DNA of 64,000 nucleotides, from the NCBI GenBank assembly GCA_965249555.1, contig OZ252243.1, positions 704,001 to 768,000 on the forward strand. The letters are read 5' to 3'. The translations under genes and the position numbers were made by a program. The notes beneath the pieces were generated by a model. The model ran no database searches, was not told the origin of the DNA, and saw only the letters and a program-made list of their open reading frames with translations. The stretch comes from Nitrosopumilus sp. (lineage in GTDB: Archaea; Thermoproteota; Nitrososphaeria; Nitrososphaerales; Nitrosopumilaceae). Of the stretch, positions 1,704 to 29,936 are shown in pieces; the first letter of the stretch is position 1, and every line of letters starts with the position of its first letter.

Positions 1704-4700
1704 TTTTTCTGTATCATCAAGAGATGGGTTTTCAGTTGGTGCTGCAGGTGTAGTTACAATCAAATCCTCAGATGAAACGCTTGTCTGGGAAATGTCGTTA
1801 GTTGATGTGGCATAATATGTGTAGGATGTTGCAGGAGTCAGACCAGTTTCAGTGTATGATGTATCGCCGGTAGTTGTTAAGAGGATATCACCTCTATACA
1901 ATTTGTATTCATTGGCACCGTCCACTGCAGTCCATGTAATCTCAATGCTTGTCGGAGTGATTGCTCCTGCTCCAAGTGTAGGAGGTGCAGGTGGAGTCGT
2001 TATGGATTCTCTGCCAATCTCATCACCATCAAATGAGAGTGTGACATCGCCACGATAATTATACCCAACTGGCATCGTAGTAGGAGGTAACTGTACACCT
2101 ACTGCATCTTCTGCAATCTCAACAGTAGTGGTCTGATCAACATCATATCCAATTGTAAAGGTACCAGATGTTAATGGTACAAATGTTGCAGATGCATCAT
2201 CAAAACCTGGTGTGACACTAAAAGAGCCAGGTTCAATTGCAGGAACTGCTGGTGCCTTTGGAGTAGTTACTGTCAAATCATCAGATGGGTGACTTGTCTG
2301 GGAAGCATCGTTAGTTGATGTGGCATGATATGTGTAGGATGATTCAGGAGTCAAGGTCTCATCAGTGTAGGATGTATCGCTGGGAGTTGCTATAGAAATG
2401 TCATCTCTAAACAGCTCGTATCCTGTGGCACCAGGTTGTGCAGTCCATGTAATTACAACACTTGTCGGAGTAACTGCTCCTTGCACAAGTGCAGGTGGTG
2501 CAGGTCCAGTCTTTACAGATACACTGCCAATTATTTCACTATCAAATGAGAGGGTGACAGGGTTGTCATAATTATACCCAACTGGTACTGTAGTAGTTGA
2601 TGGCGTATTTACTGCATCGATGATAACAGAAACAGTCTGATCAGTACCATATCCAATTGTAAAGGTACCGGATTTTAATGGTGTAAAGGATGCAGATGCA
2701 TCATCAAAACCTGGTGTGACACTAAAAGAGTCTAGTTCAATTGCAGGTGCCTTTGGAGTAGTTACTGCTGTAAACACAGGCTCACCAATTATAGAAGAAG
2801 GAAAAAAGGATATACCAACTATGCCGATTCTTTCAGCATTGACTAATCTCTCAAAATGGTTAAAAGCAGGAGTAAAATCAGCAGTGGTAACACCTTGCGA
2901 TAATTGGAAAACAGATACTACTTCATCAACACCATCTTCAGTTATATAAAGTTCATAAGTGCCGTTAGAAGATTCTACATTACTCCAAGTTAATCGAATA
3001 TTACCATTAGGTAATAGTTCAGCTGTTAAAGATGGTAGTGAAGCAAATGATGTTGTTACAGGTGTTGTTATTGTAGGTACTGCTGCAAACACAAGCTCAC
3101 CAATTGTAGAAGAAGAAGGGGATATACCAACTATGCCGATTTTTTCAGCATTATTTACTCGGTCAAAAATAGGAATATCAAGATCCATATCATAGGAAGT
3201 AACGCCTGGCGATAATAGGAAATTAATTAGCGGTGTATCAACACTATCTTCAGTTATATAAAGTCCATAAACATCGTTAGGAGATTCTATATTACTCCAA
3301 GTTAATCTAATATAATTATCAGATAATCTTTCAGCTGTTAAAGATGGTAGTGAAGCAAATGATGTTGTTACAGGTGTTGTTATTGTAGGTACTGCTGCAA
3401 ACACAAGCTCACCAATTATTAGAGTATAAGAAGGGGATATACCAACTATGCCGATTCTTTGAGCATTGATTAATCTATCATAAAAGGGAGAAAGGGGAGT
3501 AACATCAGTAGTGGTAACACCTTGCGATAATATGAAAACAAGTAGTTTTTCATCAACATCATCTTCAGTTATATAAAGTTCATACATGCCGCTAGGAGAT
3601 TTTACGTTACTCCAAGTTAATCGAATATTACCATTAGGTAATAGTTCAGCTGTTAAAGATGGTAGTGAAACAAATGGTGTTGTTATTGTAGGTACTGCTG
3701 CAAACACAGGCTCACCAATTATAGAAAAAAGAAGGATATCCATACCAACTATGCCGATTCTTTCAGCATTATTTACTCGGTCAAAAATAAGAAGATCGGG
3801 AGTAATATCAAAGGTAGTGGCGCCGGGCGATAATGGGAAATTACCTAGCAATGTATCAACACCATTTTCAGTTATATAAAATGTATAAACATCGTTAGGA
3901 GATTCTACATTGCTCCAAGTTAATCTAATAGAATCGTCAGGTAATCTTTCAGCTGTTAAAGATGGTGGTAATGGAGGGGGTACTGCTGCAAACACAGGCT
4001 CACCAATTATAGAAGAAAGAAGGGACTCTTTACCAACTATGCCGATTCTTTCAGCATTATTTACTCGGTCAAAAATAAGAAGATCGGGAGTAATATCAAA
4101 GGTAGTAACACCAGGTGATAATGGGAAAGAATCTAGGCTTTTATCAACACCATCTTCAGTTATATAAAGTCCATAAACATTGTTAGGAGATTCTACATTG
4201 CTCCAAGTTAATCTAATAGAATCGTCAGGTAATCTTTCAGCTGTTAAAGATGGTAGTGGAACAAATGGTGTTGTTATTGTAGGTACTGCTGCAAACACAG
4301 GCTCACCAATTGTTATAGTAGACTCACTGGTCTCTTTGCCAACTAGGCCGATTCTTTCAGCATTGATTAATCTATCATAAAAGGGAGAAAGGGGAGTAAC
4401 AACAAATGTAGTAGCACCGGACAATAATATGAAATTAGATACTATTTCATCAACACCATCTTCAGTTAGATAAAGTCCATAAACATTGTTAGGAGATTCT
4501 ATATTGCTCCAAGTTAATCTAATAGAATCATCAGGTAATCTTTCAGCTGTTAAAGATGGTGGTGTTGTTGTTACAGGTGTTGCCATTGTAGGTACTGCAG
4601 TAAACACAGGCTCACCAATTATTGTAGAAGAAGAAGTGAGATAACCAACTATGCCGATTCTTTGAGCATTGACTAATCTCTCAAACTGGTTAAAAGCAGG

Positions 4701-4997
4701 AGTAAAATCAGTAGTGGTAACACCTTGTGATACTGGAGAAATAGTTACTATTTCATCAACACCATCTTCAGTTATATAAAATGTATAAACATTGTTAGGA
4801 GATTCTACATTACTCCAAGTTAATCGAATAGTACCATTAGGTAATAGTTCAGCTGTTAAAGATGGGTCGGGGTTAGTTTGAGCTTGAGCTTCTGCAACAC
4901 TTGCAAAGGTAAGTGATATGGTAAATAGTGCCACCAATACGAGGCAGAAAAATGGAAACTTGGTTGCTTGCAAAGGCAAGTTACATGACAGAGTCAC
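1..4997 (-). CDS. Giant secreted surface/adhesin-like protein (>=1665 aa, runs off the window): signal peptide, 7 FnIII-like ~100-aa repeats, FnIII domains and Ig-like (DUF5011/HYR-like) repeats
   Basis: Not in the ORF track because it has no stop within the window. Manual minus-strand translation from GTG 4997 gives ...FPFFCLVLVALFTISLTFASVAEAQ (signal peptide), then PSLTAE..IRLTWSN repeats, VITWTAQPGATGYELFRD..SYTDETLTPESSYTY (FnIII) and GVYTVLYDAPDDAAGN / DTTPPVIT (Ig-like). The same frame holds at positions 3-60. An upstream ATG at 5044 is out of frame across the poly-G tract. Confidence 0.85.
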   Translation of the reverse strand, partial: MTLSCNLPLQATKFPFFCLVLVALFTISLTFASVAEAQAQTNPDPSLTAELLPNGTIRLTWSNVESPNNVYTFYITEDGVDEIVTISPVSQGVTTTDFTPAFNQFERLVNAQRIGIVGYLTSSSTIIGEPVFTAVPTMATPVTTTPPSLTAERLPDDSIRLTWSNIESPNNVYGLYLTEDGVDEIVSNFILLSGATTFVVTPLSPFYDRLINAERIGLVGKETSESTITIGEPVFAAVPTITTPFVPLPSLTAERLPDDSIRLTWSNVESPNNVYGLYITEDGVDKSLDSFPLSPGVTTFDITPDLLIFDRVNNAERIGIVGKESLLSSIIGEPVFAAVPPPLPPSLTAERLPDDSIRLTWSNVESPNDVYTFYITENGVDTLLGNFPLSPGATTFDITPDLLIFDRVNNAERIGIVGMDILLFSIIGEPVFAAVPTITTPFVSLPSLTAELLPNGNIRLTWSNVKSPSGMYELYITEDDVDEKLLVFILSQGVTTTDVTPLSPFYDRLINAQRIGIVGISPSYTLIIGELVFAAVPTITTPVTTSFASLPSLTAERLSDNYIRLTWSNIESPNDVYGLYITEDSVDTPLINFLLSPGVTSYDMDLDIPIFDRVNNAEKIGIVGISPSSSTIGELVFAAVPTITTPVTTSFASLPSLTAELLPNGNIRLTWSNVESSNGTYELYITEDGVDEVVSVFQLSQGVTTADFTPAFNHFERLVNAERIGIVGISFFPSSIIGEPVFTAVTTPKAPAIELDSFSVTPGFDDASASFTPLKSGTFTIGYGTDQTVSVIIDAVNTPSTTTVPVGYNYDNPVTLSFDSEIIGSVSVKTGPAPPALVQGAVTPTSVVITWTAQPGATGYELFRDDISIATPSDTSYTDETLTPESSYTYHATSTNDASQTSHPSDDLTVTTPKAPAVPAIEPGSFSVTPGFDDASATFVPLTSGTFTIGYDVDQTTTVEIAEDAVGVQLPPTTMPVGYNYRGDVTLSFDGDEIGRESITTPPAPPTLGAGAITPTSIEITWTAVDGANEYKLYRGDILLTTTGDTSYTETGLTPATSYTYYATSTNDISQTSVSSEDLIVTTPAAPTENPSLDDTEKPVITPTGSDTTIELTATDTYTEQGGTVTDNDPDYSETATPSGDTPDTSSIGVYTVLYDAPDDAAGNTPDQQSIVITVSDTTPPTFDVDGNTDDYSTTVPFGGTYAQGTIANAFDISGTAPGMVGGKTVNVNASGEYAVTYTVTDNNEQSRTITETVTVGPDVTPPVITVTPEEITLELDSPAPVLLDGVSTDDGSPITISGTVDVGTVGDYTITYSSTDGTNPAGDKTRTYKVTDTTPPPVPAITTPPATVGSTPITIDGTSTEAGATIQLFNGMTPAGTTTADDSGNFSFAGVELDEGGNSFTARASDGVNTSDPSPAVLITLDTTAPVITPTGSDTTIELTATDTYTEQGGTVTDNDPAYPGTVAVSGDTPDTSSIGVYTVLYDAPDDAAGNTPDQQSIVITVSDTTPPTFDVDGNTDDYSTTVPFGGTYTQGMIANAFDISGTAPGIVGGKTVNVNASGEYAVTYTVTDNNEQSRTITQTVTVGPDVTPPVITPTGSDTTIELTATDTYTEQGGTVTDNDPDYSETATPSGDTPDTSSIGVYTVLYDAPDDAAGNTPDQQSIVI
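2760..4865. repeat. Seven ~300-bp tandem repeats encoding FnIII-like domains with variable segments
   Basis: The motif cagctgttaaagatgg recurs near 3020, 3332, 3647, 3950, 4239, 4544 and 4850, with recurring ctccaagttaat and ccaactatgccgattct blocks. Confidence 0.9.
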
Positions 4998-5008
4998 CCC
5001 CCCCCCCC
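4997..5008 (-). repeat. Poly-G(12) homopolymer in the 5' end of the giant surface gene; candidate phase-variation tract
   Basis: 12 C on the + strand. The ATG 5044 frame reads MKNIIHCVNAPPGGGG-stop; 10 or 13 G would join it to the long ORF. Confidence 0.75.
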
Positions 5009-5075
5009 GGGCGGGGCATTAACGCAGTGAATAATATTTTTCATATAATATTATAAATAATTTAATTTATATAGT

Positions 5076-5348
5076 TTAAAATATCTGTCTGTGTTGTCTT
5101 TTTTGCTTTTTCCATTCAATGGAATTTTTTGATGGCGGAGAGCGTGCATTCTCATAATATGACAGTCTTTTTTGCAGTTCCTTGTTTGATTCTATGAGAT
5201 TCTCTATGATTAATTTTAGTTGTTTTATCTCTGCTTGTAGCTGTATGATGATTTTCTCATGACCACAACCTGACATGTTTTATATGATGATTTAGTTGAT
5301 CTTAGATCTTTTTGTGTAATGATATTGATTTGTGCGTGAAGGTTGATA
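5076..5348 (-). mobile_element. Truncated IS66-family element (left end plus 5' fragment of the transposase); its terminal 5 bp lie at 6678-6682, beyond the IS110 insertion
   Basis: ORF 5076-5276 (MSGCGHEKIIIQLQ...) matches the N-terminus of 30044-31393, and 5277-5348 is the reverse complement of the IS66 left end at 29972-30043. Confidence 0.9.
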
Positions 5349-5355
5349 ACTATAT

Positions 5356-6471
5356 GTGAATACAAAAAGAAGGAATTCAGATAGCATAGGAAATGAATCT
5401 AATTCCAAGATTCGTAATTCATCGTATTCCAAGAAAAGTCCAAAGAAACAGATTAGGGGAAAAAAAGACAAGGGCATGTATGTTGGCATTGACTTGCACA
5501 AGAAATTTCTTCAAGTGGCAACAATGGATAATGACGGAAAGATATTACAAAACATAAAAGTTGAGAACACTCATGAATCAATCAGGAAACATTTTACAGA
5601 CATACCGATTCATGCAAACATTGTCATGGAATCATCATCAGTTTGGTATAACACGTATAGATTTCTTACAGATGAATTGGGATACAAAAACGTAATACTG
5701 TCAAACCCGTATCTTACAAAGGCAATAGCTGCATCAAAAAAGAAGACAGACAAGATTGATGCCAGGATACTGGCAGATCTTTTGCGCGGGGGATACATTG
5801 CAACATGTCATGTTCCAAACAAAAAGATAGTAAAACATCGCCAGCTGGTAAGATACAGAAAAAAACTCATTCAGTGGAGAACATCTCTCAAAAATTCTGT
5901 CCATGGAATTTTGTTGCAGGAGGGAATCAAGATACCAGGAGTCACGTTCACTGTAACATACAACAGAAGACTCACCTCCCTAGGTGACTATCGCATAGAC
6001 GGATTCGTACGACAGATAGACTATCTTAATCTGCAAATTGAAGATATTAATTCAAGAGTGTATGCTGCTGTAAATGCCAGTCCTGATGCCATGATAATAA
6101 AATCAATACCCGGAATTGGTGACTACTCGTCACTAGTTATCGCATCAGAAATTGCAAATATTGACAGATTCAACAACTCTCACAAGTTATGCGCATATGC
6201 AGGAGTCGTGCCATCAGTCAGAAACTCTGCAGACACGATACATCATGGCCGTATAACCAAAAGAGGAAGCATGACACTACGATGGGTCCTTATCCAATGC
6301 GTCCATTCTCATGCAATACATGCCAAGAACAGTGACATTACAAAATTTTACAATCGCATTAAAAAGAAGAGAGGCTCATCAAAGGCCGCAGTTGCCGCAT
6401 CATCAAAGATCCTGCGAGTGATTTACTGGATGCTAAAAGAGAGGAGAGAATTTGTACAGAATTACAGTTAG
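5356..6471 (+). CDS. IS110-family transposase/recombinase
   Basis: YVGIDLHK, VMESS and KTDKIDARILA (DEDD RuvC-like); SIPGIG and AYAGVVPSVRNSA (C-terminal Tnp domain with conserved Ser). Start is GTG 5356 or ATG 5476. Confidence 0.95.
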   Translation: MNTKRRNSDSIGNESNSKIRNSSYSKKSPKKQIRGKKDKGMYVGIDLHKKFLQVATMDNDGKILQNIKVENTHESIRKHFTDIPIHANIVMESSSVWYNTYRFLTDELGYKNVILSNPYLTKAIAASKKKTDKIDARILADLLRGGYIATCHVPNKKIVKHRQLVRYRKKLIQWRTSLKNSVHGILLQEGIKIPGVTFTVTYNRRLTSLGDYRIDGFVRQIDYLNLQIEDINSRVYAAVNASPDAMIIKSIPGIGDYSSLVIASEIANIDRFNNSHKLCAYAGVVPSVRNSADTIHHGRITKRGSMTLRWVLIQCVHSHAIHAKNSDITKFYNRIKKKRGSSKAAVAASSKILRVIYWMLKERREFVQNYS

Positions 6472-6640
6472 GACTGCAAGTCGCGTTTGGTATGTTGAGG
6501 GACAGGCCTCGGTTGATAACTGCGGATAGGTCCTAACGAAGGGATGAAGATAGCATTGAGGAAGAAGCCTCGTATGGATACATGTCCGTCATCTTTTGTT
6601 TGAAAGCATTCCCTAGCGAAAGCTATGCCTTGGGATGTAA
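6467..6640 (+). ncRNA. Putative bridge/seek RNA of the IS110 element
   Basis: Stems gttaggac/gtcctaac (6467-6474/6530-6537) and gaagggatga/tcatctttt each enclose a GAGG-N6-CCTC hairpin flanked by guide-like matches to the target and donor sites. A third hairpin tagc-GAAA-gcta follows. The structure is conserved in the copies at ~10950-11120 and 29781-29870. Confidence 0.75.
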
Positions 6641-6647
6641 AAAAGTA

Positions 6648-6662
6648 GGAAATGTATAAAAA
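6648..6662 (+). promoter_or_regulatory. Outward-facing archaeal BRE/TATA-like promoter in the IS110 right end
   Basis: ggaaatg-TATAAAAA (TATA at 6655-6662), with the TATA conserved in four right-end copies. In the excised circle the first T would sit 30 nt upstream of GTG 5356. Confidence 0.55.
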
Positions 6663-6682
6663 CAATTCACATGGATACATAC

Positions 6683-7062
6683 CTAATTTTTCCTTGTTCT
6701 CCTCAAAGACTATGTTGTCGTATTGGATTTTGTGTTTGTTTAGAAATTTCTCAACACCCTTGCTGTGTATGGGATTGTTGGTTACTATATCCACACCATC
6801 ATACATCTCTGATAGTATCCTTATCTTTTGTTCCAGCATCAGCTCTGTCGGCTCTAGCGTATCCCACTGCTCCCAGCACTGCGAATATCCCGCGTGCATC
6901 ATCATATGTCATGTTGAATTTTCTGTAAAAACCAAACTCGCTTATCTTGTTATATGACAGTTTCAAGTCGGAATATTTTGCAGAATAGTCCATGTTGAAT
7001 ATTGAGATCCATTTTTTTATCGTATTTGATAGTACACCATCAAAGTCTACGGCTATACTCAT
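6683..7062 (-). pseudogene. HAD-family 5'(3')-deoxyribonucleotidase-like gene, frameshifted and truncated by the IS66 insertion
   Basis: IAVDFDGVL motif in 6799-7062 continues in another frame (QCWEQWDTLEP...DIVTN...IVFEENKEKL) and is cut at the IS66 end at 6682. Confidence 0.7.
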
Positions 7063-7119
7063 GTTATTTGTTAGAATATTTTAAAAATTATTTGTAAAAA
7101 ATACTAAATATTTTTTAAA

Positions 7120-10231: not shown

Positions 10232-10471
10232 TTATTCTGATAACCCATGATGATCAAAGACTCCCAACTTTGTTTCGGTCTCCCTATCTTTCCTAGCTCT
10301 TTCTCTAGAACCCATATAGCGAGCTTTGGTTCTTAATAGATGTCCACAACATGGACATCTTGCTCCCTCACATTTGATATACATCTCACATACTTTGCAA
10401 CGTTTCCGTCCACCATCATATCGTGTACCTTTTTCTGTTACCCTATATCTGATGCAAATTCCCTTACAAGC
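10232..10471 (-). pseudogene. Small Cys-rich zinc-finger protein whose start codon was removed at an IS110 fragment
   Basis: Manual translation: ACKGICIRY...GRKRCKVCEMYIKCEGARCPCCGHLLRTKAR...SE*. IS110 internal sequence begins immediately upstream. Confidence 0.65.
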
Positions 10472-11161
10472 TAGGTGACTATCGCATAGACGGATTCGTA
10501 CGACAGATAGACTATCTTAATCTGCAAATTGCAGTGATTAATTCAAGAGTGTATGCTGCTGTAAAGACCAGTCCTGATGCCATGATAATAAAATCAATAC
10601 CAGGAATTGGTGACTAATCACTAGTTATCGCATCAGAAATTGCAGATATTACCAGATTCAATGACTCTCACAAGTTATGCGCATATGCACGAGTCGTGCC
10701 ATCAGTCAGAAACTCTGCAGACACGATACACCATGGCAGCATAACCAAAAGAGGAAGCATGACACTACGATGGGTCCTTGTCCAATGCGTCCATTCTCAT
10801 GCAATACATGCCAAGAACAGTGACATTACAAAATTTTACAATCGCATTAAAAAGAAGAGAGGCTCATCAAAAGATGTAGTTGCCGCATCATCAAAGATCC
10901 TGCGAGTGATTTACTGGATGCTAAAAGAGAGAATTTGTACAGAATTACAGTTAGGACTGCAAGTCGCGTTTTGTATGTTGAGGGACAGGCCTCGGTTGAT
11001 AACTGCGGATAGGTCCTAACGAAGGGATGAAGATAGCAATTGAGGAATAAGCCTCGTATGGATACATGTCCGTCATCTTTTGATTGAAAGCATTCTCCAG
11101 CGAAGGCTATGCCTTGGGATGCAAAAAAGTGGGAAATGTATAAAAACAATTCACATGGATA
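10471..11161 (+). mobile_element. 5'-truncated, degenerate IS110 copy with an intact non-coding right end
   Basis: Matches 5980-6677 with small deletions and stops; ends ...attcacatggaTA followed by catac. Confidence 0.9.
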
Positions 11162-11167
11162 CATACA

Positions 11168-11401
11168 TTATTTTTCATTATTATAAAGATGGTCAAAAAA
11201 TTCATCACGTAAATTCATATCTTCAAGATCAGGTTTAAGCCTTGACCAAGGAATAACTTCTTGATCAATATCTAAAATTAATTCTTGATTGAAAGTTGTA
11301 TGATTTAAGATCATGATATTAGGAGTGCCTTTCCATTCACTAAAACCGATTCTTTGAAAAACTTTTCTTACAATGGATACACAATATTCATCACGATTCA
11401 T
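11168..11401 (-). CDS. Possible HicA-like toxin (divergent)
   Basis: 77 aa, directly downstream of a HicB-like gene; VRKVFQRIGFSEWKGTPNIMIL resembles the HicA pattern but lacks the GSH histidine. Confidence 0.45.
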   Translation of the reverse strand: MNRDEYCVSIVRKVFQRIGFSEWKGTPNIMILNHTTFNQELILDIDQEVIPWSRLKPDLEDMNLRDEFFDHLYNNEK

Positions 11402-20891: not shown

Positions 20892-20981
20892 GTAGATATA
20901 TCAAACACTTTAGATGTATCCATGTGAATTGTTTTTATACATTTCCCACTTTTTTACACCCCAAGGCATAGCCTTCGCTAG
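20892..20981 (-). mobile_element. IS110 right-end relic (20917-20981) joined to an IS66 right-end relic (20892-20916)
   Basis: The reverse complement reads tagcgaaggctatgccttgggg...gtataaaaacaattcacatggaTAcatctaaagtgtttgata. Confidence 0.8.
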
Positions 20982-25344: not shown

Positions 25345-25405
25345 GTATGTATCAACCTTCACGCACAAATCAATATCATTACACAAAAAGATCCAAGATC
25401 AACTA
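25345..25405 (+). mobile_element. IS66 left-end relic
   Basis: gtatgtatcaaccttcacgcac...gatcaacta is near identical to 29967-30027. Confidence 0.85.
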
Positions 25406-26413
25406 ACTATATGTGAATACAAAAAGAAGGAATTCAGATAGCATAAAAAATGAACCCAGATCCAGGAGTCGTAATCCATCGTATTCCAAGAAAAGTCCAA
25501 AGAAACAGATTAGGGCAAAAAAAGACAAGGGCATGTATGTTGACATTGACTTGCACAAGGAATTTCTTCTAGCAACAATGGATAATGACAGAAAGATATT
25601 ACAAAACATAAAAGTTGAGAACACTCATAAATCAATCAAGAAACATTTTACAGACATACCAATATTGTCATGGAATCATCATCAGTCTGGTATGGCACGT
25701 ATAGATTTCTTACAGATGAATTAGGATACAAAAATGTTACACTCTCAAACCCGTATCTTACAAAGGCAATAGCTGCATCAAAAAAAACAGGCAAGATTGA
25801 TGCTATGATACTAGCCAGATCTTTTGCGCGGGGGATACATTGCAACATGCCATATTCCAAACAAAAAGATAGTAAAACATCGCCAGCTGGTAAGATACAG
25901 AAAAAAACTCGTTCAGTTTAGAATCTCTCTCAAAAATTCTGTTCATGGAATTTTGTTACAAGAGGGAATCAAGATACCCGGAGTCACGTTCACTGTAACA
26001 TACAACAGAAAACTCATGTTACTAGATGACTATCGCATAGATGGATTTGTACGACAGATAGACTATCCTAATCTGCAAATTGCAGAGATTAATTCAAGAG
26101 TGTATGCTGCTGTAAAGACCAGTCCTGATGCCATGATAATAAAATCAATGCCAGGAATTGGTGACTACTCGTCACTAGTTATCGCATCAGAAATTGCAAA
26201 TATTAACAGATTCAACAACTCTCACAAGTTATGCGCATATGCCGGAGTCGTGCTATCAGTTAGAAATTCTGCAGACACAATACACCATGGCAGTATAACC
26301 AAAAGGGGAAGCATGACACTACGATGGGTTCTTATCCAATGTGTTCATTCTCATGCAATACATGCCAAGAACAGTGACATTACAAAATTTTACAATCGCA
26401 TTAAAAAGAAGAG
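25406..26413 (+). pseudogene. Frameshifted, 3'-truncated IS110 transposase copy
   Basis: Begins actatatgtgaatac, as at 5349; split over ORFs 25413, 25670 and 25824; homology ends at aaaaagaagag (26413). Confidence 0.9.
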
Positions 26414-29704: not shown

Positions 29705-29780
29705 ATCAATTCTTGATTTTTTACTATGTGTTTGATCAGCGTAGTATATGCTACTTGTATTGATTTGCCTATTCCACCTT

Positions 29781-29936
29781 GAAGATAGCATTGAGGTTAA
29801 AGCCTCGTATGGATACATGTCCGTCATCTTTTGATTGAAAGCATTCCCTAGCGAAAGCTATGCCTTGAGATGCAAAAAAGTGGAAAATGTATAAAAACAA
29901 TTCACATGGATACATCTAAAGTGCTTGGATACATAC
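29781..29936 (+). mobile_element. IS110 right-end relic (donor loop to TA 29911-29912) joined to an IS66 right-end relic
   Basis: Matches 6546-6677, followed by catctaaagtgcttggatacatac, which resembles the IS66 right end at 31387-31408. Confidence 0.85.

Follow-up and report, generated by a model that had tools for sequence, protein, structure and literature searches.

A candidate two-base handshake in the predicted bridge (seek) RNA of an archaeal IS110-family element with the IS1111 layout

The window analyzed here is a stretch of 64,000 nucleotides (64 kb) of a Nitrosopumilus sp. genome (contig OZ252243.1, positions 704,001 to 768,000 of the forward strand), and it contains an intact copy of an IS110-family element of the IS1111 layout, with a candidate RNA gene 3′ of the transposase (Table 1). 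It was found that the product of the transposase (recombinase) ORF matched PF01548 (3.9e-25) and PF02371 (1.7e-21) above the Pfam cut-offs, and that it aligned to the recombinases of IS621 (8wt6_A, E 1.5e-13) and ISCro4 (9t56_A) with the D, E, D, D and S columns retained. The catalytic residues of the IS621 recombinase are four acidic residues and a serine (PMC11208158), and the five conserved residues aligned onto D11, E60, D102, D105 and S241 of IS621; the chain numbering of 8wt6_A is 2 above the paper numbering used here, an offset inferred from the landing of all five residues on the right positions. The same five residues were invariant in four homologues, down to 41% identity. The protein has the N-terminal RuvC-like DEDD domain and the C-terminal Tnp domain with a catalytic serine that characterize the IS110 family. 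The family-conserved N terminus begins at the ATG at 5476, three copies in the genome have a stop-free frame of 373 aa, and the nearest relatives of the element were found in Nitrosopumilus assemblies.

The non-coding DNA from the stop codon (6471) to the right end (6677) measures about 205 nt, and the left end is short, with at most 8 nt 5′ of the ORF, or 128 nt 5′ of the conserved ATG. A long non-coding right end that carries the RNA gene, together with a short left end, is the layout described for the IS1111 group (PMC11208160). Sub-terminal inverted repeats of 8 bp (extent by eye) are also present, within the 7-17 bp of that group, and a 7-base word of the right end, when reverse-complemented, matched the left end at 7/7 positions. 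The segment between the left end and the conserved ATG (5362-5475) is open in frame, giving a basic 40-aa extension from the GTG at 5356, and contains short nucleotide blocks kept down to the 41% relatives (by eye); it may be a peptide or a leader. An A/T-rich, outward-facing TATA-like box lies at 6655-6662, about 22 nt inside the right end, and similar boxes are likewise placed in relatives (by eye). A junction promoter is known for the IS110 family, and this box is a candidate archaeal counterpart that could, in the circular form, drive the transposase gene across the junction.

Partial copies of the element were found elsewhere in the window, at 10471-11182, 20914-20981 (- strand), 25404-26413 and 29780-29915. 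To the left of the intact copy, three ORFs at 3910-4644 (+ strand) have in common a repeated peptide of about 25 residues, in a repeat of about 300 bp. To the right, at 6684-7062 (- strand), there is a 5′-nucleotidase-like gene (PF06941, 24.1 bits, just below the 24.8 cut-off) that appears to be split across two overlapping frames, the downstream one of which runs into the insertion.

The ends of the element were defined by comparison of copies. The genome is a single contig of 2.23 Mb with 54 matches to the element, which were taken with their flanks, and 21 left and 30 right ends were aligned. The T at 5347 and 6676 was the sole base found at both junctions of every copy. The base 5′ of this invariant T at the left junctions was A in 17 copies, T in 3 and C in 1, and the base 3′ of it varied at the right junctions, where ACA followed the T in 22 of 30 ends (hand count). 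In the window copy, both donor and target have TA at the crossover, the core taken for granted in the preliminary description. The alternative assignment of the core as AT (5346-5347) was rejected because donor and target disagree at the first of these bases in most lineages.

The flanks left of 5347 and right of 6677 are contiguous in about 46 uninterrupted copies of the target in the genome (a hand count of the exact matches among 51 sites with up to two substitutions), and the junctions had thus been assigned correctly in the preliminary description of this DNA. An intact copy of the flanking repeat encodes a 329-aa DDE_Tnp_IS66 protein (E 4.4e-42), and therefore the element lies in the terminal inverted repeat of an IS66-type element; the target repeat extends over 5200-5348 and 6678-6683 of the window. 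Some members of the IS1111 group sit in Tn21's terminal inverted repeats, at a fixed position, and the element described here is likewise in the terminal repeat of another mobile element, although the host in this case is of the IS66 family. The contigs of four runs on 4900-7100 broke at repeat boundaries, with none bridging, and no circles or empty sites were seen in them; one joint of 5775 to 6584, in one contig of one run, is recorded here without interpretation. A query for sequencing runs of this sequence listed none of RNA.

Table 1. Features of the window copy of the element, its flanks and its predicted RNA (window coordinates).
Feature	Position	Strand	Basis and remarks
Left target flank: five bases and target-specific base x (5346)	5341..5346	+	End of an IS66-family terminal repeat; copied at 6511-6516
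Left copy of the shared TA core	5347..5348	+	Comparison of left and right ends; the base preceding T goes with the target rather than the donor
Element left end	5349..5361	+	AC (5349-5350) matched by the target-loop candidate handshake; inverted repeat 5354-5361
Transposase/recombinase ORF	5356..6471	+	371 aa from GTG 5356; Pfam and structure-sequence alignment
Predicted bridge (seek) RNA core	6478..6602	+	Target-binding loop, then donor-binding loop; alignment of 12 lineages
Target-loop 5′ strand	6489..6495	+	Complementary to right flank 6677-6683, 7/7; varies among copies and follows the flank
Target-loop apical hairpin	6497..6510	+	Stem 6497-6500 with 6507-6510
Target-loop 3′ strand	6511..6518	+	Left-target guide 6511-6515, target-specific base 6516, core TA 6517-6518
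Target-loop candidate handshake dinucleotide AC	6519..6520	+	Same as left end 5349-5350; differs from 6678-6679 (CA) of the target
Target-loop basal stem, 3′ half	6521..6525	+	Pairs with 6481-6485 (by eye); 6521 closes the stem in a G.U pair with 6485 and does not serve as guide
Donor-loop basal stem, 5′ half	6542..6546	+	Pairs with 6583-6587; alignment column pairs 79-127 to 83-123
Donor-loop 5′ strand	6547..6556	+	6550-6553 complementary to left-end 5350-5353
Donor-loop apical hairpin	6558..6571	+	Column pairs 96-112 to 100-108, three with two-sided changes
Donor-loop 3′ strand	6572..6580	+	Right-end guide 6574-6577, same as 6671-6674; donor-specific base 6578; core TA 6579-6580
Donor-loop candidate handshake dinucleotide CA	6581..6582	+	Same as right target flank 6678-6679; differs from left end 5349-5350 (AC)
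Donor-loop basal stem, 3′ half	6583..6587	+	6583 is the final base of the 10-nt identity
Element right end	6665..6677	+	Inverted repeat 6665-6672, terminal bases 6673-6675, right core TA 6676-6677
Right target flank	6678..6683	+	Last bases of the IS66-type terminal repeat

One RNA architecture was common to 20 copies of the element in this genome and to relatives from other genomes. In the prediction, each of the two loops (target-binding, 6486-6521; donor-binding, 6547-6582) is internal, with a basal stem on one side of it and a conserved apical hairpin on the other, and a conserved linker joins the two loops. This arrangement was kept in 12 lineages, down to 41% protein identity, and in the alignment of these lineages 6 of the 15 pairs predicted for the donor-loop stem and both hairpins keep pairing through two-sided changes. 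For three column pairs of the donor-loop basal stem, the commonest pair was present in 9 to 11 of the 12 sequences, and the column pair that holds 6583 was G.U in seven, A-U in four and U-U in one. The target-loop basal stem, where the 12-lineage alignment is one column out of register, was read by eye, and two-sided changes were seen in three lineages (L034, L052 and L141; L and G numbers are our labels). The single-sequence fold of 6472-6665 was no stabler than shuffles (z -0.18), and the loops were instead defined from the 12-lineage alignment. A scan of 5000-7000 against Rfam 15 gave no match up to E = 1; Rfam may have no model of an IS1111-type RNA.

The loops match both the flanks of the target and the ends of the element, as in bridge (seek) RNAs, and the guides co-vary with the flanks across lineages. 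The 3′ strand of the target loop matched the left flank and core at 8/8 positions, and the donor loop matched the right end and core at 7/8 and the left end at four positions. In another copy, in L004, the target-loop 5′ strand matched its own flank at 10/10 positions, and the donor-loop 5′ strand changes jointly with the left end in L071, L073, L079 and L034 (by eye). In the target-loop 5′ strand (6489-6496 and its relatives), the register between the hairpin and the first paired base shifts by one base either way, and by up to two, so that the strand covers the T in some lineages and not in others. The DNA that encodes the donor-loop 3′ strand resembles the right end; the element in L035 (G036), from another genome, is truncated at precisely this place, which is also the exact start of two fragments of this genome (G000:C1:536552 and 2221507). 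Truncation at this place suggests recombination at a pseudo-site, as judged from these sequences.

Two identities between the RNA and the junctions, which had been given in the preliminary description, were read directly and are exact: 6511-6521 is the same as 5341-5351 at 11/11 bases, and 6574-6583 is the same as 6671-6680 at 10/10 bases. The 11-mer occurs 3 times in the window, relative to 0.08 expected, and the 10-mer 8 times, relative to 0.26 expected; none of 100 shuffles reached these numbers in either case. The surplus matches belong to the partial copies of the element elsewhere in the window. The order of each 3′ strand is a guide that matches its own DNA, one base specific to its own DNA, the shared TA, and two bases that match the DNA of the partner. 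Only these two bases per loop distinguish donor from target: the A before each dinucleotide and the T after it (6521, 6583) are common to both. The two dinucleotides of the window copy are crossed, giving 0/4 pairs with cognate DNA and 4/4 with partner DNA, as expected of handshake guides, that is, two core-adjacent bases in the 3′ strand that are complementary to non-cognate and not to cognate DNA.

Co-variation of these bases with the flanks was evaluated on right junctions and donor loops sampled from this genome together with 10 related genomes, 80 genome-contig loci and 80 metagenome loci, from which 29 guide/flank classes were curated by hand, with one row per class. Of the 16 rows from this genome three were kept, and the 13 that were dropped consisted of 10 full matches and three partial ones (L010, L019 and L022). 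Among the relatives, the duplicates of L065 were dropped (L064, L066 to L069 and L104; L064, L104 and L067 match less well), as were L061, L063 and L070. In the donor loop, the three bases that follow the invariant T agreed with the right flank in 27, 19 and 19 of the 29 classes, in that order, relative to permutation means of 16.3, 10.0 and 10.2, and at most 0.0006 of the shuffles reached the observed numbers, although these figures overstate independence because the lineages are related. When 62 right junctions were parsed by machine, with no curation and with false hits retained, the corresponding numbers were 44, 35 and 42, relative to 28.5, 19.1 and 24.5, and the fourth base matched in 30, relative to 25.5. 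The pairing of the target-loop 5′ strand in distant lineages covers positions -2 to +2 about the first flank base, and therefore the bases after the T in the right flank belong to the target and not to the element.

These results bear on the length of the proposed handshake. In the preliminary description, handshake-like pairing by a guide of about 3 nt had been put forward, with co-variation of the 3 nt after TA in homologous elements as the check. In the donor loop, the first two of these bases did co-vary with the flank (19/29 each, as given above), but the third, which is the fourth base after the invariant T, matched in 14/29 classes relative to 14.3 by permutation, and it belongs to the basal stem. 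Therefore, the handshake is better described as 2 nt, and the idea of handshake-like pairing itself is supported in part by the sequence logic and by the donor-loop co-variation in homologues.

The numbers of pairs that the two loops would form after and before exchange, counted over three bases each, were 6 and 2 in the window copy, L004 and L071, 5 and 3 in L062 and L036, 4 and 2 in L073, 5 and 1 in L034, 4 and 4 in L065, 3 and 3 in L033, and 3 and 5 in L079. Thus, of the 10 lineages parsed by machine, seven pair more with the DNA of the partner than with their own, two are equal and one is reversed. These counts were obtained with a constrained regular expression and a coordinate parser, L075 and L084 were read by hand, and the junction rows of partial copies, which are without a true left end, were ignored. 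The match of the handshake dinucleotide was 0/2 in four lineages (G018/L033, L073, L082 and L086) and in a variant class of this genome (the copy in L020). Seven classes, from this genome and its 85% relatives, share one donor loop, and the flank differs at the second base after the T in five of the seven; re-aiming of the target loop therefore did not carry the donor-loop handshake along. The target-loop side is nearly invariant, with AAC in both the RNA and the left end, and is barely testable because the left end hardly varies; co-variation was seen in one lineage (L034) and partially in another (L084, by eye).

The left end of the element reads AGC in 7 of the 21 left ends of this genome, which is one mismatch to the handshake. 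These copies (G000:C1 at 94803, 1239984, 1247674, 1854327, 2071119, 2194383 and 2210591) are all joined to the first 28 nt of an oppositely oriented IS66-type terminal repeat, and the donor-loop 5′ strand pairs one base better with the AGC variant. It was also observed that in most full-length copies the match to the target-loop guide is confined to the right flank (for example, the G000 copies in L002, L005 and L006, and L070-L072); the left flank with x and T matched at 3/6 positions in L002, L005 and L006 and at 2/6 in L070-L072, with little beyond x and T. Such insertions look like natural "half-match" insertions, a term taken from a 2026 preprint.

It could be that a conserved scaffold and a conserved element end agree by accident, with the bases after TA binding protein or shaping the loop and having no role in pairing. 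The near-invariance of both the target-loop bases and the left end across lineages is in keeping with such an accident, as is the fact that the donor-loop bases stayed fixed while targets changed in the closest clade, and the final T of each identity is indeed scaffold. However, the donor-loop bases vary among lineages and track the flank, which lies outside of the element; AC and CA are crossed exactly, an outcome with a chance of about 0.4% for four free bases at equal base frequencies; and L034 alters the target-loop bases and the left end jointly. We consider an accidental agreement of this kind improbable.

Handshake pairing was defined in IS621 of Escherichia coli (IS110 group). In IS621 the handshake guides are two core-adjacent bases in the 3′ strand of each loop that pair with non-cognate DNA after exchange (PMC11208158, PMC13626964); the pairing modulates insertion and excision, and a role in the bias between them has been published (PMC13626964). 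Handshake pairing tunes the efficiency of IS621 and is not essential (PMC11208158, PMC13626964), and the exceptions to a strict rule that were found here fit this property. The handshake concept and its conservation among IS110 orthologues have likewise been published (PMC11208158; PMC13626964). The element in the window is like IS621 in having a DEDD and serine recombinase, a single RNA in which the target loop precedes the donor loop, 5′ and 3′ guide strands in each loop, and a 3′ strand in which a 2-nt core is followed by two bases that match non-cognate DNA. If the - strand is taken as the top strand of IS621, the layout maps base for base: the invariant T is position 9, beside the top-strand cut, the second core base is position 8, and the two crossed bases are positions 7 and 6, which are the handshake positions of IS621.

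The differences from IS621 are as follows. Protein similarity is low (E 1.5e-13, as above). The RNA gene is downstream of the recombinase gene here and upstream in IS621, and the reading is mirrored, in that the 3′ strand reads from the left flank into the left end here, whereas it reads from the right flank into the right end in IS621. The core is TA (with T alone invariant) rather than CT, the base that flanks the T opposite the A is specified independently for donor and target, and in the window copy the 5′ strand of the target loop stops at the core or short of it. The number of handshake pairs rises on exchange from 1 to 3 in IS621, compared to 0 to 4 in the window copy.

We propose, with a probability of about 0.8, that the region is the guide part of an IS1111-layout bridge (seek) RNA with a 2-nt handshake beside a 2-nt core, as a mirror image of IS621. 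The 5′ strand of either loop complements the + strand right of the crossover, and the 3′ strand, being identical to the + strand left of the crossover, is expected to pair with the - strand. By analogy with IS621, the four handshake bases would be unpaired before strand exchange (0/4 match their own DNA), all four would pair after exchange of the - strand (4/4) and so may draw insertion forward, and the integrated junctions would be a locked and poorly excising substrate. A role of the handshake bases in setting insertion versus excision in this element is likewise carried over from IS621 by analogy.

The same complementarity could have the opposite consequence: the 3′ strands might read the integrated junctions to start excision (copy-out), so that pairing promotes leaving and not lock-in. 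One integrated junction is reproduced without a break in each 3′ strand, as such a role would have it, and copy-out or single-strand pathways of IS110 elements are proposed in preprints (bioRxiv 10.1101/2025.10.25.684509, 10.64898/2026.08.31.748434). In IS621, however, this natural configuration reduces excision and increases insertion (PMC13626964), and the genome, with its more than 20 copies and its many targets that are uninterrupted, fits a bias to insertion. A start of excision by these strands is therefore given a smaller chance still than accidental agreement with a scaffold, and pairing that favors insertion is the reading that we retain.

The extent of sequence shared by donor and target was evaluated across the lineages. 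Of 25 distinct full-length copies, 24 have the same base before the T in the target-loop 3′ strand as at the left junction (hand count). The base before the T (5346 and 6675 in the window, 6516 and 6578 in the RNA) is written separately in each loop and differs between donor and target in seven lineages, and therefore only the T is always shared. Where the base after the T differs between donor and target, it is usually cross-matched, as a handshake base would be; this is so in L034, L036 and L084 but not in L065 or L107. That the shared stretch is a longer core of four or five bases required in both donor and target is scarcely credible: four bases are indeed common around the crossover (5345-5348, 6674-6677), plus the T after the dinucleotide, but in the window copy donor and target have different dinucleotides, the base before the T differs in the seven lineages above and the base after it in several, and so this idea is already contradicted by the sequence.

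If a single T is all that must be shared, every junction has the sequence expected from a cut in the - strand alone, right beside the T, and its exchange, and the variant expected from a second, 2-nt staggered exchange was not found in the seven-copy family (L064-L069, L104), the one family in which it could be tested. Within that family, from a related genome, the right junctions of L064 and L104 have one extra T at the crossover compared to L065, L066, L068 and L069. It may be that this archaeal clade needs a single shared T, with almost no constraint on the core, and that the junctions record a single-strand (copy-and-paste) transfer, a proposal that we regard as tentative and rather doubtful.

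Among known systems the element also resembles ISEc11, ISKpn4, ISPa11 and ISPst6, the seekRNA elements of the IS1111 group, in the non-coding region downstream of the transposase gene and in the sub-terminal inverted repeats; those elements are bacterial, whereas the element in the window is archaeal. As in these seekRNAs, the top-strand match is 5′ of the bottom-strand match and the matches overlap at the insertion point (PMC11187229). The guide order of IS1111-type seekRNAs has been reported as reversed (PMC11187229), and in the available part of that account target matches only are described, the donor loop and the handshake being unnamed there. In the part available of a review (PMC13604230), the handshake is mentioned for IS621 only, and among the main texts searched none was found to apply handshake guides to seekRNA elements or others of the IS1111 type.

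In its present form the finding is a confirmation of known biology, in a member of the family that is new, archaeal and mirror-imaged, and it raises no new question. Handshake guides had been defined on one bacterial element of the IS110 group, and their apparent presence here suggests that fewer pairs before exchange and more pairs after it are general to RNA-guided DEDD recombinases rather than peculiar to IS621. The sharing of T only and the matches to the right flank only bear on off-target behavior and on freedom of aiming, and the crossed dinucleotides give a programming rule for IS1111-type systems.
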